DNA of 64,000 nt, taken from assembly GCA_963736895.1 (NCBI GenBank), contig CAVTQU010000008.1, positions 436,535-500,534 of the forward strand, given 5' to 3'. The translations under genes were made by a program, and so were the position numbers. Below the pieces are notes generated by a model. It made no database searches, was not told where the DNA came from, and saw only the letters and a list, made by a program, of their open reading frames with translations. Shown piece after piece: positions 54,513-62,525 of this stretch (position 1 is the stretch's first letter; each line of letters begins with the position of its first letter). The DNA is from an uncultured Chloroflexia bacterium (lineage in GTDB: Bacteria > Chloroflexota > Limnocylindria > Limnocylindrales > CSP1-4).

Positions 54513-56589
54513 ATGACCGACATGACCGACGAGCAGCCACTGCCGAGCGGCATCCGCGACGATCTCGAGGCGCTGCTTGTCGCACTGCCGCCGGAGATCG
54601 CCGAGCGTATTCGCGCGATTCCCGCGGAACGCGACGTGATCGAGGTCGTCATGGACCTTGGCCGCCCGCCTGAGGCTCGCTTCGGTGGCGGCGGCGAGGA
54701 GGTCCTGCTCGAGCGCGAGGTGACCGAGGAGGACATCCAGTACGTCATCGACCACATCGGCTCGTTCGGCGAGGACAACCGCGCCGGCATCGAGCGCACG
54801 CTGCATCGCATCAGCGCCATCCGCAACCGCAGCGGCAAGATCGTTGGCCTCACCGCGCGCATCGGCCGCGCCGTGTTCGGCACGATCGAGATCATCAAGG
54901 ACCTGGTCGAGTCGGGGAAGAGCGTCCTGATCATGGGCCGGCCGGGTATCGGCAAGACGACGATGCTGCGCGAGGCCGCGCGCGTGCTGGCCGACGAGCT
55001 CGACAAGCGCGTCGTCGTGGTCGACACGTCCAACGAGATCGCCGGCGACGGCGACATCCCGCACCCGGGGATCGGCCGCGCGCGACGCATGCAGGTGCGC
55101 ACGCCGGCGCAGCAGCACGCGGTGATGATCGAGGCGGTCGAGAACCACATGCCCGAGGTCATCGTCATCGACGAGATCGGGACGGAGCTCGAGGCAGCCG
55201 CGGCACGCACGATCGCCGAGCGCGGCGTCCAGCTCATCGGCACGGCGCACGGCAACAACCTCGACAACCTGATGCTCAACCCGACGCTGTCCGACCTGAT
55301 CGGTGGCATCCAGAGCGTCACGCTCGGTGACGAGGAGGCGCGCCGCCGCCGGACGCAGAAGAGCGTCCTGGAGCGCAAGGCGCCGCCGACGTTCGACGTC
55401 GTGGTCGAGATCCAGTCGCGCGACCGCGTGACGGTCCATCCCGACGTCGCCGACACGGTCGACGCGATGCTGCGCGGCGATCCGATCGCGCCCGAGCAGC
55501 GCTGGCGCGACGAAGGTGGCGGTCCACCGCTCGCAGGCACGGCCGCGGCCCGGGCCACAGAGCGCAGATGCCAGGCGAGCGTTTTGGCGGTCTCGTCGGC
55601 ACCGGCACGAGCGGCTTCGGAGCCCGTCGGGCGAGCCGGGCTGGCGCACGTCGCCGACTCTTCGCACGGTTCGGGCTGCAGCACCGAGCGCGGCTACCGA
55701 CCCGGCTATCGGCCCGGGCGCGACCGGCGGTTGGCGGCGCGGTCGGGCAGGCCGCTCATCGGGCTCGGGCTCGAGGGTCGCGGCCGCGATTCATGGGAGG
55801 ATGATCAACAACCCCGGCGCGACAGCGTTCCAAGCCGGGGAGCTAGCCGATCGAGGGCCGCTCGAGCGCGGCACGCCGCTGCCCGGAGCCGCGCGCGCGC
55901 GACATGCGCGAGTTCGAGCGTCAGCGTGAGTGGCGCGACTCGGCGGCGCGCGCGATCAACCAGCTACGCGTGGCGGATGCGTTCGATGGCGAAGAGGGCA
56001 CCGATGACGAGGGCGATGCCTTCTCGACGAGGACTTCGACGCTGACGACGACGGAGCTCGCCGGCGAGCGCCGACCGACGCCATTGCCGTCGGTCGGCGA
56101 GCGATCTCGTCGCTGCCCGAACATGAACGTGCTGGGCTTCGGCGTCAGCCACAAGCGCCTCGAGCAGGCGGTTCGCGAGCTGCAGCTGCCGGTGACCCTG
56201 GTGCGCGAGCCGGACGAGGCGGACGTCGTCGATCACGCTGCGCAACTACTTCAAGCAGAAGGCGCCGGCGCTACGCGACGCTGAGGAACGCGGCCTGCCG
56301 ATCTTCGTGCTGAAGTCGAACACGCTTGATCCAGGTCGAGTCCGCCCTGACGTCGATCTTCGCGCTGGAGGTCGATCCGCGCGACGCCGCGCTGCGCGAG
56401 GTCGAAGAGGCGATCGGCCTGGTCCACGCGCAGTCACAGCCGGTCGAGCTGTCGCCGCAGAACGCATACATCCGCCGGCTGCAGCACCAGATGGCCGAGC
56501 AGGCCAACCTCGTGTCGCACTCGCGCGGCCGCGAGCCCTACCGCCGAGTTCGGCTCTATCCGGATACGCCGCGCGCCCAACGCGGCTAA
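54513..56589 (+). CDS. SpoIIIAA/Ycf45-like AAA ATPase with C-terminal R3H domain (3' half frameshifted)
   Basis: [47 protein letters not shown]; later [14 protein letters not shown] and [10 protein letters not shown]. Confidence 0.88.
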
Positions 56590-58234
56590 CGCCTAGAGGC
56601 CGAGGCCAGAGGCCCTGGCCGGCGATGAGCGACGGCCGGCGACGAGCACGACTGACGGCGCAGGTCACCGGGCAGACGCGTGCGACCGAGGTCGAGAGCG
56701 GCGGCGACTGCGCGGGGAAGCGCTCGACGAACTTGCGCGCGTAGACGAGCGCAAAGCCGATGCCGACGAGCACGAAGGCCATGCCCAGGCCGAACGCGAT
56801 CGGTCAGCACGATGCCCCAGGCCGGCCGGCCGATCGAGATCGAGCCGATCAGCACCAGCAGCGCCGACACGGACGGGATCATGCCGCCCGACAGACCGAG
56901 CGCGAAGAGGCCGCGCTTGCCGATGCCCTGCTGGGGACAGGTGGGTGTGGCCCATCCCGTCGTGCTCGTGCCAGCCTCGGCTGGCACGCGCTGCGTGAAT
57001 GGTCGTGCTCGTGCTCGTGCTCGACGCCATGCTCGTGGGCGGCGGCGTGGCTTCGTGCGGCTCGCCGGCTGAGCACATCGACGCCGCAACGCGCGTGACC
57101 AGCAGGTAGCGTGCCGATCACGACCACGATCGCGCCTGACACGACGCTCAGGATGGGATAGAGGCTTGCTCGGCCGGGATGACCACGGCCGCGGAGAGGC
57201 TGAGAGCGCCCAGGGCAAGTACGCCGATCGTGTGCGACACCGTCACCGTCAGACCCAGGCCAACCGCCTGGCGGGCGTTGCCGCGCGAGCCGACCAGGTA
57301 GGCGGCCATGACGGTCTTGCCGTGGCCGGGAGAAACGGCGTGAAGCGCGCCCGAGCCCGACCGCGACGAGCAGCGACAGAGCGATGATCGGCGGCGTCAG
57401 GTCTGCCGCCTGGAAGAGCGCCGTGACGTCGCTGCCGAGCTCGGTCACGCCCGCCGGGGAGGATGGCCGGGGCGGGGGCCGCCTCTGCCGGCGCCACCGG
57501 CTCATCGGCTGGTATCGCCAGCGGTGGTCGGCCGTCGAAGCCAATCGGCGTCGCGTCGGGAACGGAGAAGGGCGGGCAGTGTCGGGCCGCCCGGCGTTCG
57601 CGACGAAGCGTCGCCGCCGATTGGCCAAGCGGAATGGACAGCAGGTCGGCGGGATAGTGGGTGAGCCGGTCGGATGTGCGCCGTCGTCGGGAGCGTCGCT
57701 GTCCTGCAATCGTCGCTCCGTCGCCCTCGCACGACGATCTCGCGCCAGCCCTGTCGCTCGGCGTAGGAAACGGTCCTCGAACGAGAACGCGGCAGCGGCC
57801 GCCAGAGCGCGACGGTCGAGCGCTGCGCTGTAGACGCACACGAGGCGCATCGTCGGATTGCCCTGACCCATCGGGAAGCTGATGCCGCGCTGACGGTCGT
57901 CCAGCGGCAGCGGCGAGCCGCCGACCGTCAGGTCGAGATCTGGGTCGCCAACGCCGCGCACTCGCGCCGCGTCGAAGGCGGCCGCCTCGGAGTCGGAGAC
58001 GTCGCCGTCGGCGTCGGTGTCCATCTGGCGGCGCTCGCTGAAGGTGGGGATCTCGGCGAAGTCGGTGACGTGGTCGACGAGAACGGCGTCCGTCGCCACG
58101 CGCAGCCCGTTGTAGTGGTTGATCGTGAAGTTGCCGAGCGGGTGTGCGCTCGTCGCTGGGACGACGAGCGCCAGTGCCGCGAGGGCGAGGGCGAACGCAG
58201 CGCCAGGACTGACAGCCGGCGCGCAGCGGTTCAT
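56586..58234 (-). CDS. NicO/RcnA-family nickel/cobalt transporter with N-terminal extracytoplasmic domain (heavily frameshifted)
   Basis: AHPLGNFTINHY; GALHAVSPGHGKTVMAAYLVGSRG; His-rich HEHGVEHEHEHDH; GLSGGMIPS. Confidence 0.8.
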
Positions 58235-59605
58235 TGACCGAGCGCCTTCTCGCGCCGCCTGGACTGACGAGCGGCGAGAACGGAGGATGAAGAGCGAGCG
58301 CCTGCTGGAGGTGTGCGCGCCCTGGTCGGTCAGGCCGTTGGCGATCTCGATGAGTCCGGCGTGGATCAGCAGCTTGGCGTCGGGCGTGCCCAGGCCATCG
58401 CCTGGCTCATGGCGCCCAGCGCCTCGGCGTCGCGGCCGGCGGCGTGGAGCGCCCAGGCGTATGTGTCGTAGCCGTAGATGTCCTTGCGGTTTCGAGCTCC
58501 GTCTGGGCGAGCGTCAGCGCCCGTCAGCGTCGCCATCCGTGATCGGACAGGAACAGGCTGTACTCGCGGTCGTAGACGGCCGCTGCCGGTCGCTGTGCAG
58601 GCCACGCGATGAACTCGACCGTGTGCGTACTGCTCGTGCCGCCGGCTGATCGCCGGACAGCGCGTACAGGTCGCCCAGGAACGCCACGTAGTCCGGCCGC
58701 GGCACGGCGGCCACGGCCGCTCGTAGGAACGAGATCGCACCGGCGATGTCGCCACGGGCGTAGGCCACGCGACCTTCGCCGGCCAAGTGCCAGCGCGTAG
58801 CCGGGCAGCGCGGCCAGGGCGGCCGAGTAGCTCGGCCGGCCGCATCGAGATCGCCGGCCAGCAGCTCGAATTCGGCGGCGGCGTAGTCGTAGAAGGCGAG
58901 GTCGGCGGCCAGTTCGCCACGCGCGTCGGCCGCCTCGGCGGCCTGCGTGGCCAGAGAGCTGCGCCTGGCCGGATCGCCTTCGAGGAACGCGAGTCGCGCC
59001 GGCGCGGACGGTGATCGGCGGGCCAGTCGACGCGGCTGTCGAGCTTTGTCAGCGCGATCGTCGCGTTGTCGACAGGTCGCCCGAGCTCGAAGGCAGCTAT
59101 CGAAGACGATCGCCAAGCGCGGCGTTCGCGATGGATTCTGTTCGAGGACAGTCGTCGCGTCGCGCAGCGCTCGTTGAAGTCGTGGAGCGTCGAGCTGCGA
59201 TCCTCGCCAGGCCGAGTCGAGGCATGCGTGCTCAGCGGCGCGATGTCGAGCGCGCTGCTGGTAGGCAGTCGTGCGCCGAGGTGAAGTTGGCGAGGTCGCC
59301 GGTCTGGCGGCCCTTCGAGTCGAACAGCGTCGCCAGGTATGACCACGCGGTGTCCGAGCTGGGGTGTCTCGCGGAGCCGGTCCTGCCAGAAGGCGATGCG
59401 GCGATCGACGTCGCTGGTGTCGACGCCGGCGACGCGGAGCGATCGGGTCAGCCGGCGTGATATCGGTCAGCGGATCCGCAGCGGCCGCCGGAGCCGGCGC
59501 CGCGACGGCCGGGGCCGGCACGGTGGCGGACGCAGCATCACGGGGCCACAGCTGCACGGTCGCGACGATGAGGATGGCGACCAGCGGCAGCACGAGGTAG
59601 CGCAC
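58231..59605 (-). CDS. Membrane-anchored TPR protein (heavily frameshifted)
   Basis: N-terminal TM helix; fragments DLAFYDYAAAEFEL, PRPDYVAFLGD, DIYGYDTYAWALHAAGR; ATGA overlap with the transporter gene. Confidence 0.72.
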
Positions 59606-59705
59606 GCGGCTGAACCGCGCGGGAAGAGATCGGCGAAGCGTGCCCGGAGGGCCCGGGGATGCCGCTTCGGCGATCCCCGGACTTCCGAGTCAGCGCCTGA
59701 GGCAC

Positions 59706-60741
59706 TCAATTGTTCGCCGCTGCGAGGAACGGCCAGCTGTTCGAGAACGATGCTGTCGTTGTCCACGCAGTCGGTGGTGATGGCGCCATTGGTGACGAGG
59801 TCGAGCTCGGCATCGATGACGTCATCGGAGAGACGACGACCGTTGAGGAAGCCGTCCGTGTTGCCCGTCTTGTAGGTCAGGATGTCCGGGATCAGCACGC
59901 CGGCGAGGCCGTTGGGATCCGCCGCGCCGAGTGCCGTCAGGACGTCCTCGACGTGATAGCGGTAACCGCGGCCAACCTGCTTGATGGGATTGCGTCTCGT
60001 TGAACTTCTGGCGATCGGCCTGGTCGGTCTCCTCGTTGTTGAAGACCGTGTTGATCGCCGGCCGACCCATCTGGTCCAGCTGATGGCCAGTTCGAGTCGA
60101 CTGTCGTGGCCCACACGCCGATGCCCATGTCGTTGCCGCCCAGCGAGCTGTTCGGCACCCTCAGGACGATGGCGCTGATGTTCAGGCCAAGGAAGAAGTC
60201 GTGGGTATTGCTGTCGCAGAAGGTGCGGCCATTGCCGTTGCCCAGGACCTGCGCCCTTGAAGGCGTCGAGGTCGAAGAAGAACGGATCGTCGAACAGGCC
60301 GGCAGTGGTTCGCCACCGCCGCCGATCAATGTCGACTCGGTGCCGGTCCAGCCCGCCCGCCAACCAGGTGTCGTTGCGCCACAGGTCGTAGCTCTGGACG
60401 CCCATGTTGTTGGGCTTGCCGAACTTGTACATGTACCTGATGTCGGCCTTGTGGTCGCCGTCCGTGTCGACCTTGATCAGGTAGTCGATCTTCGAGCCGA
60501 ACGTGGTGGGCGAGTTGGGCAGCGCGCCCGCGCCGGGATTGACGCCGAGGATGAACACGGTCTGGTTCCCGCCGTTGCCGCTGAAGACGTACAGGTCGGT
60601 GATGTCCCCTCGGCCGTTCTCCGACACCTTTGGCGAATCAAGGTGATCGGCCGCGTTGGCAATCGGTGCCAGACCGAATGAAAGGATCAGTAGTGAGCTG
60701 GCCAGCGAAGCCGCGGCTGCTCGTGTGCGCTCAGTGCGCAT
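59706..60741 (-). CDS. Secreted DUF4331 family protein (frameshifted)
   Basis: Signal peptide, then AADHLDSP, DITDLYVF, DDPFFFDL, MGRPAINT, NGRRLSDDVID; GGAGG RBS before the ATG at 60741. Confidence 0.88.
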
Positions 60742-60766
60742 ATGGTGAGTACCTCCTCGGTGGTTG

Positions 60767-60796
60767 AAAAACGCGTGCCGCCGACGTGGCGCACGC
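60767..60796 (-). terminator. Terminator-like hairpin inside the DUF4331 5' leader
   Basis: GCGTGC-GCC-acgtc-GGC-G-GCACGC followed by GTTTTT, just upstream of the RBS. Confidence 0.35.
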
Positions 60797-60896
60797 CGCG
60801 GCGCCTTGTGGCGCGCCGGACCTTGGGCATGTCCGTCTTTCTGGGGCGCTCCTCCTCGATCTGGGCCGGTCCTCATTCCGGGTTGTCACTCCTCTG

Positions 60897-60922
60897 TACG
60901 CAGCCGATCGCGAAAGGGATCA
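60897..60922 (-). promoter_or_regulatory. ECF (SigK-type) promoter for DUF4331-TPR-NicO
   Basis: TGATCC (60922-60917), 16 bp, CGTA (60900-60897). Confidence 0.6.
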
Positions 60923-61023
60923 GTGGCCCGTCGCTCGCCCGTCGCTAGACTGAATCCATGCCCGTCCGTGACCTGGAGTTGCGTTTTCTTCATGCCCCGC
61001 AAGCAGAAACGCCGGCTTCGAAG

Positions 61024-61049
61024 TGAACCGGCGGGGGGTGTTGGGCGAA
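61024..61049 (+). promoter_or_regulatory. ECF (SigK-type) autoregulatory, probably leaderless promoter
   Basis: TGAACC (61024-61029), 16 bp, CGAA (61046-61049); GTG start 7 nt downstream. Confidence 0.6.
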
Positions 61050-61056
61050 TGAAGCA

Positions 61057-61653
61057 GTGAGCGGCCACGCAGGAGTGGCTGCTGACGGTGCTGCCCAGGT
61101 AGGCACGTCCGACGAGGCGCTTCTCGAGCGTCTCGCAGCGGGTGTCGATGAGGACGCGCTGTCCGAGCTGTATGACCGCTATCAGGGTTCGATGTACGGA
61201 TTGGCGATGCGCATAACGGGTGACGCACAGATGGCCCAGGACGCTGTCCAGGAGGCCTTCGTCGGCATTTGGCGCAACGCCGCCCGCTATTCGGGCAGCA
61301 AGGCGTCGGTGCGCACCTGGATGATGTCCATCGCCCACCATCGCGCGATCGATCTCGTCAGGCGTCGTCGACCAACCTCGCCGCTCCCCGAGACGGAGAC
61401 CCAGGCTGTGGGCGAGGCGTTCAGGTCACCAGACGTGTGGCCTGAGGTTGCGCGAGCCGCAGACGCGGAAGCAGTTCGGCGAGCCATGTCCACCCTGCCC
61501 GACGCGCAGCGCGAGACCATCGAGCTGGCGTATTTCGAGGGCCTGACGCAGGTCGAGATCGCGGAACGAACGAATGCGCCCCTGGGGACCATCAAGAGCC
61601 GCGTCCGCCTTGGCCTGACTCAGATGCGGCGCATCCTCGAGGACACGGCATGA
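61057..61653 (+). CDS. ECF sigma factor, SigK-like
   Basis: ALSELYDRY, AQDAVQEAFVGIWRNA, HHRAIDLVRR, YFEGLTQ, PLGTIKSRVRLGL. Confidence 0.9.
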   Translation: MSGHAGVAADGAAQVGTSDEALLERLAAGVDEDALSELYDRYQGSMYGLAMRITGDAQMAQDAVQEAFVGIWRNAARYSGSKASVRTWMMSIAHHRAIDLVRRRRPTSPLPETETQAVGEAFRSPDVWPEVARAADAEAVRRAMSTLPDAQRETIELAYFEGLTQVEIAERTNAPLGTIKSRVRLGLTQMRRILEDTA

Positions 61654-62525
61654 CCGAGCCTTCGCTGACGCCACCGGGCGGAATCACATGCGAAGAGGTC
61701 ACCGAGCTTGCCGGCCTCTTCGTGCTGGACGCGCTCCAGCCGGATGAGCGAGCCGCTGTGGTGGCTCACCTCGAGACATGTCCTGAGGCGCACGAAGAGG
61801 TGCGCGCAATGGGCGGAGTGGCGCCGGCGCTGGCCTCGCTCGCCCAACCGGTCGATGCTCCGCCCGAGTTGAAGTCGCGCGTGATGGCCGCCTATGCCGC
61901 CGACGCAGCGGCGGGTCAGCTCGCTGCGCAGGGTGCTGCTCCGACCACCGTTACACATCCTGCGAAGATGCCGGGCCGCTACTCCACTGGCGAACGGATG
62001 AAGCCCGTGCCCGCCGCGACGCCGGCGGTCCCGTCAAGGGCTGCCTGGCGGGTGCCAGCTTGGGCGGGGTGGACGGCGGCCATCGCCGCGGTTCTAGTCC
62101 TGGCGGTTGTCGGCGTCTGGGCTCTCGGCCTTCAATCGCAGATTAACGACGCCAACCAGCGCGCCGCATTGCTGTCCGACGCCATCGCGGCTTATTCAGC
62201 GCCGGACTCCCAGACGGCGGTGCTCGACGACCCGAACTCATCCGCGGCGGGCTTCGCCGCTGTGACGGCCGACGGGACGGCCTATGTCGTACTGAGCGAC
62301 CTTCCGCCTGCGCCGTCGGGAAGTACCTACCAGGGCTGGTACATCGTCGACAACGCGCCGGTTTCCGCCGGCTTGGTCACCGTTGGGCCGGACGGCCTGA
62401 TGCTCATGACTGACTCGCAACCGGCATCTGGGACCTCGGCAATCGCGTTCACCGTCGAGCCGAGCGGTGGCTCCGAACAGCCGACCAGCCAGCCATTCGT
62501 CGTCGGCGAGCTTCAATCGGCCTGA
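61650..62525 (+). CDS. Anti-sigma factor, RskA-like
   Basis: LFVLDAL...HLETC, TM helix, C-terminal YQGWYI, SAGL, TVEPSGGSEQPT. Confidence 0.88.
   Translation: MTEPSLTPPGGITCEEVTELAGLFVLDALQPDERAAVVAHLETCPEAHEEVRAMGGVAPALASLAQPVDAPPELKSRVMAAYAADAAAGQLAAQGAAPTTVTHPAKMPGRYSTGERMKPVPAATPAVPSRAAWRVPAWAGWTAAIAAVLVLAVVGVWALGLQSQINDANQRAALLSDAIAAYSAPDSQTAVLDDPNSSAAGFAAVTADGTAYVVLSDLPPAPSGSTYQGWYIVDNAPVSAGLVTVGPDGLMLMTDSQPASGTSAIAFTVEPSGGSEQPTSQPFVVGELQSA

Follow-up and report, generated by a model that had tools for sequence, protein, structure and literature searches.

In an uncultured Chloroflexota (Limnocylindria) bacterium, the gene for a SigK-like ECF sigma factor and a gene of the family DUF4331 are transcribed away from each other across an intergenic region of 312 bp that carries two similar bipartite motifs. 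The locus raises the question of whether these motifs are promoters and, if so, whether both are read by the sigma factor encoded beside them. We examined the 64,000-nt stretch of contig that holds the locus (the window, in whose positions all coordinates are given) together with the whole genome, related loci and characterized ECF systems. From the sequence comparisons we consider it highly likely that the 312-bp region comprises two divergent ECF-type promoters, both read by the adjacent SigK-like sigma factor. The sigma factor belongs to a soil class that is uncultured and inaccessible to genetics, and it thereby gains a recognition motif validated by comparison and a regulon of two promoters.

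The sigma and anti-sigma genes and the two motifs

The sigma gene (61057..61653, plus strand) encodes a 198-aa protein with the Pfam domains Sigma70_r2 (1e-19), Sigma70_r4_2 (3e-13) and Sigma70_ECF, as found in ECF (group IV) sigma factors, and the protein scores above the cutoff of NCBIfam TIGR02937. Its best NCBIfam family is SigK (NF007228), at 156.1 bits against a curated cutoff of 226, so we name the protein SigK-like rather than SigK in the strict sense. Among PDB entries, M. tuberculosis SigK (4NQW_A, E = 3e-32) matches it best, with RpoE, SigW and SigL ranking lower. The positions aligned to the SigK cysteines read VRRRR and MRRILE, and with not one cysteine in its 198 residues the protein lacks the SigK redox pair.

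Directly downstream, as in ECF18 and ECF19, lies the gene of an RskA-type anti-sigma factor (61650..62525, plus strand), which overlaps the sigma stop codon (ATGA). Its product matches Pfam zf-HC2, RskA_N (below cutoff) and RskA_C (1.5e-21), and it exceeds the cutoff of NCBIfam NF052375 (146 bits against 100). The N-terminal domain (61650-61800, plus strand) carries the pattern H-x3-C-x3-H (AHLETCPEAH), not the classical H-x3-C-x2-C of zinc anti-sigma factors, and the orthologue in the same-genus genome G012 shares this pattern (AHIASCTRDH).

An earlier note on this DNA had described TGATCC-N16-CGTA on the minus strand, aimed at DUF4331, and TGAACC-N16-CGAA on the plus strand, 7 nt ahead of the sigma GTG, with identical spacing. 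Both sites are exactly where it placed them, and the common N16 can be read directly from the sequence. On the DUF4331 side, the -35 element TGATCC lies at 60922..60917 and the -10 element CGTA (extended, tGCGTAc) at 60900..60897 of the minus strand; in plus-strand reading this is TACG (60897-60900), 16 nt and GGATCA (60917-60922). On the sigma side, the -35 element TGAACC (61024-61029; with its flanking bases, (g)TGAACC(g) at 61023..61030) is followed after 16 nt by the -10 element CGAA (61046-61049), which the seven nucleotides TGAAGCA separate from the GTG at 61057. No start further upstream than this GTG is possible for the sigma gene, since TGAACC contains an in-frame stop, TGA. The -35 hexamers stand back to back with 102 bp between them. 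Both sites have the make-up of SigK-type promoters, namely (C/G)A(T/A)CC at -35 and CGAA or CGTA at -10, about 16 nt apart, one before the sigma operon and one before a target.

Conservation, chance level and rank in the genome

Orthologues of the sigma factor at 54-73% identity were found in 14 genomes of the same genus, which gave 15 loci for comparison. Upstream of the sigma ORF, only GTGAxCC (61023-61026 and 61028-61029) and the CG at 61046-61047 are invariant in these loci, and the 16-nt spacer varies freely. The motif GTGA[A/T/G]CC-N16-CG[C/A]A, with the -10 consensus gCG[C/A]At, stands immediately before the sigma gene in 15/15 loci. The DUF4331-side motif, T(G/C)ATCC-N16/17-CG(T/A)A, is kept in 13/15 loci with unrelated spacers of 16 or 17 nt. 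Eleven of the kept sites lie ahead of DUF4331 and two ahead of another secreted protein, while the two loci without a kept divergent site are one that ends at a contig edge and one with an intervening gene. The loci L013 and L014 (genomes G010 and G004; sigma 58% identical) have the same back-to-back pair with a different secreted protein in place of DUF4331 as the divergent gene, so the promoter architecture would predate the target gene in question or not depend on it.

The start codon of the sigma gene, be it GTG, ATG or TTG, falls in one alignment column in 14/15 loci, where most have a distance of 11 nt, and two of 10 nt, between it and the C in the CG of the -10 element, and the genus alignment of 15 loci has no Shine-Dalgarno sequence before it. 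A single start-codon column at a set distance from the -10 element, with no Shine-Dalgarno sequence, implies a leaderless transcript, and by this alignment the sigma mRNA is probably leaderless, although two orthologues start with TTG, which is uncommon in leaderless mRNAs.

Outside the genus, TGA(A/T)CC-N16-CG(C/A)A occurs directly before nearly every sigma homologue from 72% down to 44% identity. It is also kept in a Thermomicrobiales MAG and in loci with a thymidylate kinase gene ahead of the sigma gene. The presence of the motif before the sigma gene throughout the genus and in nearly all of these homologues lends comparative support to the autoregulation that the earlier note had proposed.

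We also retrieved 80 loci from many phyla with a DUF4331 alignment and searched the neighborhood of DUF4331 with profiles built from this sigma factor and this anti-sigma factor. A SigK-like sigma gene and an RskA-like anti-sigma gene lie within 4 kb of DUF4331 in 57/80 loci, head to head with it in 34. In 30 head-to-head loci outside the discovery set (mostly Gaiellales/Thermoleophilia, with one Dehalococcoidia), the motif [GC]A[AT]CC-N15-17-CG[ACT]A is present on the DUF4331 side in 28, on the sigma side in 27 and on both in 27, against an expectation of 0.11 for both strands and a maximum of 1 in dinucleotide shuffles; these loci are mutually related and hence not 30 independent events, though their spacers differ. 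Along with the 13 genus loci, they uphold the tie between the sigma factor and the divergent operon that had been drawn from the matching sites. Co-directional loci of Dehalococcoidia have GTGATCC-N16-CGAA ahead of the sigma gene and a second copy ahead of DUF4331, and loci of Bacteroidota and one of Planctomycetota have AA(A/T)CC-N16-CGTA. Among culturable bacteria, Flavobacterium and Gaiella strains are examples of carriers of the module. Downstream of DUF4331, 58 of the 80 loci have a TPR gene and 51 a NicO-like gene. Depending on the lineage, TGAACC and TGATCC are each found on either side, so one sigma factor may plausibly read both. The locus is thus one more clean cross-phylum case that links SigK-like sigma/anti-sigma pairs to a DUF4331-TPR-permease operon.

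The complete genome G002 has a gene between DUF4331 and the sigma gene, yet GTGATCC-N16-CGAA is still present about 170 nt ahead of DUF4331. The intervening gene is co-directional, about 290 codons long and by eye apparently sortase-like, and the DUF4331 there is of the long type. At this locus (L214:1159-1247), a back-to-back pair, CTGATCC-N16-CGTA and GTGATCC-N16-CGAA, serves the intervening gene and DUF4331, besides a sigma-proximal site.

The loose pattern TGAWCC-N16-CGWA occurs four times in the window against 0.37 expected, a count reached by 0/100 shuffles; the two extra matches lie within a tRNA-Thr gene and at a coding junction. The genome scan with this pattern that the earlier note had suggested does return both sites but does not discriminate, giving 23 matches in 3.02 Mb against about 17 expected when the window expectation is scaled up. 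The loose pattern is therefore too weak as proof by itself, and we dropped it as evidence.

A two-block position matrix was built from 41 sites, all from other genomes, and run over both strands of the 3.02 Mb. It ranks the sigma-side site 1st (21.6 bits) and the DUF4331-side site 2nd (20.4 bits) genome-wide, which makes good the claim of a usable recognition motif for the sigma factor, in the sense of a comparatively validated one. Matches of at least 14 bits number 31 in the genome and 34-43 in shuffled genomes, whose best scores are 18.5-21; the information in the motif is low, and regulon membership is unreadable from sequence alone. The matrix scan of the whole genome gave no further regulon member that could be named. 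With matches not above those in shuffles, and the next-best ones inside genes or tRNA, the regulon that can be detected in this genome appears to consist of the two promoters alone.

The divergent operon and the intergenic region

The DUF4331 gene (59710..60744, minus strand, 3' end approximate; Pfam PF14224) encodes a protein with a signal peptide and the mature end ADHLDSP. It is followed on the same strand by a TPR gene, the second gene of the operon (58231..59713, limits approximate), and by the gene of a NicO/RcnA-like, His-rich transporter (56590..58234, 3' end approximate). All three genes are frame-broken here: the tblastn pieces of DUF4331 lie in three frames, with the middle third out of frame, and the other two genes are present as ORF fragments. 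The operon is intact in the same-genus short-read MAG G012, with a DUF4331 protein of 343 aa that has a signal peptide, a TPR protein of 490 aa whose gene overlaps the DUF4331 stop, a transporter of 504 aa and, after it, an ELWxxDGT-repeat gene. The transporter of G012 matches Pfam NicO and falls below the cutoff of the NCBIfam nickel/cobalt efflux subfamily. We infer a metal-handling role for the DUF4331-TPR-NicO-like operon.

The transporter (58120-58234, minus strand, in the window; L053:5581-7095, minus strand) has a signal peptide that leaves a mature N-terminal His (SA, then HPLGNFTINHY). Its extracytoplasmic domain spans about 240 aa, and a loop on the cytoplasmic side is rich in His. 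By architecture alone the transporter is reminiscent of the Ang-2 permeases among the anglerase-permeases (Ang-1/Ang-2 with HupE/UreJ-2; PMC12537917), with which it has in common the signal peptide, the mature N-terminal His, the extracytoplasmic domain and the His-rich metal permease. However, the permease here matches NicO/RcnA rather than HupE/UreJ-2. The anglerase-permease paper mentions neither DUF4331 nor sigma factors (PMC12537917), and we found no mention of DUF4331 in the literature searched. The AlphaFold model of DUF4331 (pLDDT 78, pTM 0.80) gave no meaningful match in a Foldseek comparison with the PDB, where the best hits (E 3e-3, TM about 0.1) were all antibody Fabs, so the fold yields no functional clue.

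Judging by its -10 element, transcription toward DUF4331 would start at about 60889-60891, which predicts a 5' leader of about 146 nt (60745..60891, minus strand). The leaders of relatives measure about 100-150 nt and have a conserved SD-like block and a short hairpin. Conserved structure in the leader amounts to a 4-pair hairpin (-4 kcal/mol) with weak covariation, and Rfam has no match in the intergenic region, including this leader. Ahead of the true SD, relatives and this window alike have a GC hairpin and a second SD-like block further upstream, which reads GAGGAGGGACGCCTAGCGA in relatives and GAGGAGGAGCGCCCCAGA in this window; in the leader of this window the hairpin is followed by TTTTT, which makes it terminator-like. 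The intergenic region has two weak terminator-like hairpins, at about chance level.

On the plus strand, the genus-level divergent loci keep a TA(A/G)ACT element (TAGACT here, 60947..60952), which as cTA(A/G)ACT precedes the sigma -35 element by 33 or about 50 nt. It could be a housekeeping -10 element with a leaderless short ORF, for basal expression of the sigma factor, a reading that is unproven. The short ORF, of 22 codons in this window, stops at the TGA of the sigma -35 hexamer, and a strict sigma-70 promoter scan of the intergenic region gave no match. After cTA(A/G)ACT (60947-60969, plus strand) comes a conserved block, (C)GTGC(C/G)CGTCCC, which here reads ATGCCCGTCCGT.

Reading of the two promoters and relation to known systems

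The comparisons support reading the locus as an ECF unit of SigK type that regulates itself and is paired with a matched promoter for a divergent target, a design that is already known. The RskA-like membrane anti-sigma factor would hold the sigma factor until an envelope signal inactivates the anti-sigma factor, and the holoenzyme of the freed sigma factor would then read both promoters and switch on both units. At the sigma promoter, TGAACC-N16-CGAA, transcription would start at or next to the GTG at 61057 and yield a leaderless mRNA for the sigma and anti-sigma factors, so that self-activation would act as positive feedback, damped by the RskA-like anti-sigma factor made along with it. At the DUF4331 promoter, TGATCC-N16-CGTA, a start near 60890 would yield the DUF4331-TPR-NicO-like transporter operon behind its leader as the output. 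The motifs, their conservation, their genome rank and their joint occurrence with this sigma clade in several phyla come out of the computation, and it is sigma binding, the transcription starts, the leaderless start and the signal that we infer. Being compact, with one sigma factor, one anti-sigma factor and about 330 bp that hold two promoters, the module could be transferred to a laboratory host as a reporter for the RskA-releasing signal.

It is improbable that both sites are real ECF promoters read by a different ECF sigma factor, with the neighboring one as a passenger or a cascade target. The genome does hold many other ECF-like genes (51 first-look candidates), any of whose products could in principle read both sites; M. 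tuberculosis SigL reportedly uses a TGAACC-type -35 element; and the genus consensus is slightly unlike on the two sides (GTGAACC/CGCA before the sigma gene and T(G/C)ATCC/CGTA before DUF4331), which counts against a single reader. Yet the motif accompanies this sigma clade from phylum to phylum and precedes the sigma gene in nearly every homologue, SigL is a far weaker match than SigK to this sigma factor, and one gene alone in the genome matches it at E <= 1e-20. Still less probable is a role of the conserved blocks as operators, bound by a regulator such as a metal-responsive repressor, instead of as promoter elements. Such a regulator would suit a divergent operon that looks metal-related, and relatives carry a GGGATCCC palindrome just downstream of the DUF4331-side -10 element, but the palindrome is absent from the window. 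Moreover, two blocks are conserved at a constant distance of 16-17 nt, and the spacer between them varies freely; each site has an orientation and is aimed at a gene, with the C of the sigma-side CG set 11 nt from the start codon; and both fit the A(A/T)CC / CG(T/A)A pattern of ECF promoters. A chance resemblance chosen after the fact has a probability close to nil. The near-chance count of the loose pattern genome-wide and the two meaningless matches among its four in the window would fit it, but exactly these columns are conserved in 15 loci, the sites take the top two ranks with a matrix built without this genome, and the head-to-head loci have both sites in 27 of 30 cases.

With the two sites read as promoters of the adjacent sigma factor, the breaks in all three operon genes mean that the target is possibly inactive here or that the assembly has indel errors. 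The promoters might then be ancestral relics, the operon decaying to pseudogenes and sigma autoregulation alone remaining relevant in this organism, which we regard as unlikely. The breaks number at least three in DUF4331, with more in the TPR and transporter genes. Against decay, the transporter gene is also broken in another long-read MAG (G009) and intact in the short-read MAG G012; the two ends of DUF4331 share a frame, and over the whole span about 47% of positions are identical to the orthologue of G012; the DUF4331 promoter is itself intact; and the CheckM completeness of 59%, for 3.0 Mb in 11 contigs, is consistent with indel errors. The broken gene in G009, the intact one in G012 and the CheckM value lead us to prefer long-read assembly indel errors over gene decay, so that from the sequence data assembly errors rather than pseudogenes are the favoured explanation of the frame breaks. 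The neighboring gene at 54513-56045 (plus strand) likewise shifts frame.

A layout with two promoters is the ordinary design for an autoregulated ECF regulator. Like the locus described here, generic ECF operons (E. coli RpoE, B. subtilis SigW, M. tuberculosis SigE/SigL) have a -35 element with an AAC/ACC core and a -10 element with CG, 16-17 nt apart, and a sigma gene under its own sigma-dependent promoter that is co-transcribed with the anti-sigma gene, as is predicted here. Their -10 elements, however, are CGTC/CGTT, whereas ours is CG(A/C/T)A, and the present locus differs further in a transcript that is probably leaderless and in a matched divergent promoter for a single conserved target operon.

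The closer likeness is to M. tuberculosis SigK/RskA (ECF18/ECF19; PMC7509140, PMC7826278), where an ECF sigma factor is likewise followed by a single-pass RskA-type anti-sigma factor and the regulon is likewise very small and largely local (the sigK locus and mpt70/mpt83). SigK sites are conserved across Actinobacteria and even in Yersinia, whereas Mycobacterium smegmatis mc2155 lacks sigK-rskA (PMC7509140). In contrast to SigK, our sigma factor, which is only about 40% identical to it, does not have the Cys133/Cys183 pair of the M. tuberculosis protein, a pair conserved in 94% of ECF18 and 56% of ECF19 (PMC7509140). In the mpt83-sigK-rskA cassette, as set out in PMC7509140, the gene of a fasciclin (MPT83) lies beside sigK-rskA under a SigK site, whereas the neighboring target here is not mpt83 or another fasciclin gene but the operon of DUF4331 (PF14224), the TPR protein and the NicO-like transporter, and the host is an uncultured member of the Chloroflexota.

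According to a 2014 review, what M. tuberculosis SigK does is still "to be elucidated" (PMC4105308). We tentatively suggest, as a possibility that we think rather less likely than its opposite, that the SigK/RskA-like ECF clade as a whole has DUF4331-TPR-metal permease as its ancestral core regulon (with A(A/T)CC-N16-CG(A/T)A promoters, in Chloroflexota, Actinomycetota, Bacteroidota and Planctomycetota), that the Ni/Co/Cu status of the envelope is the RskA-type signal, and that the mpt70/mpt83 regulon is a later replacement.

The sites of the two systems can be compared directly in mycobacteria, for which we retrieved 80 sigK loci, 60 of them full-length, with the M. tuberculosis SigK chain from PDB 4NQW. 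The motif CCATCC(g)-N16-CGAAT(a), with variable spacers, lies upstream on the sigK strand in 33 of the 60 full-length loci, which bears out the earlier description of SigK-type promoters as having a (G)ATCC-like -35 and a CGAA-like -10 element. The mycobacterial -35 element is CCATCC where the sigma side here has GTGAACC, but both systems share the bipartite form A(A/T)CC-N16-CG(A/T)A. The mycobacterial sites are mostly about 4.1 kb upstream of sigK, apparently at the head of a sigK-containing operon, and four of the mycobacterial sigK loci have them as back-to-back pairs, as at the locus studied here.
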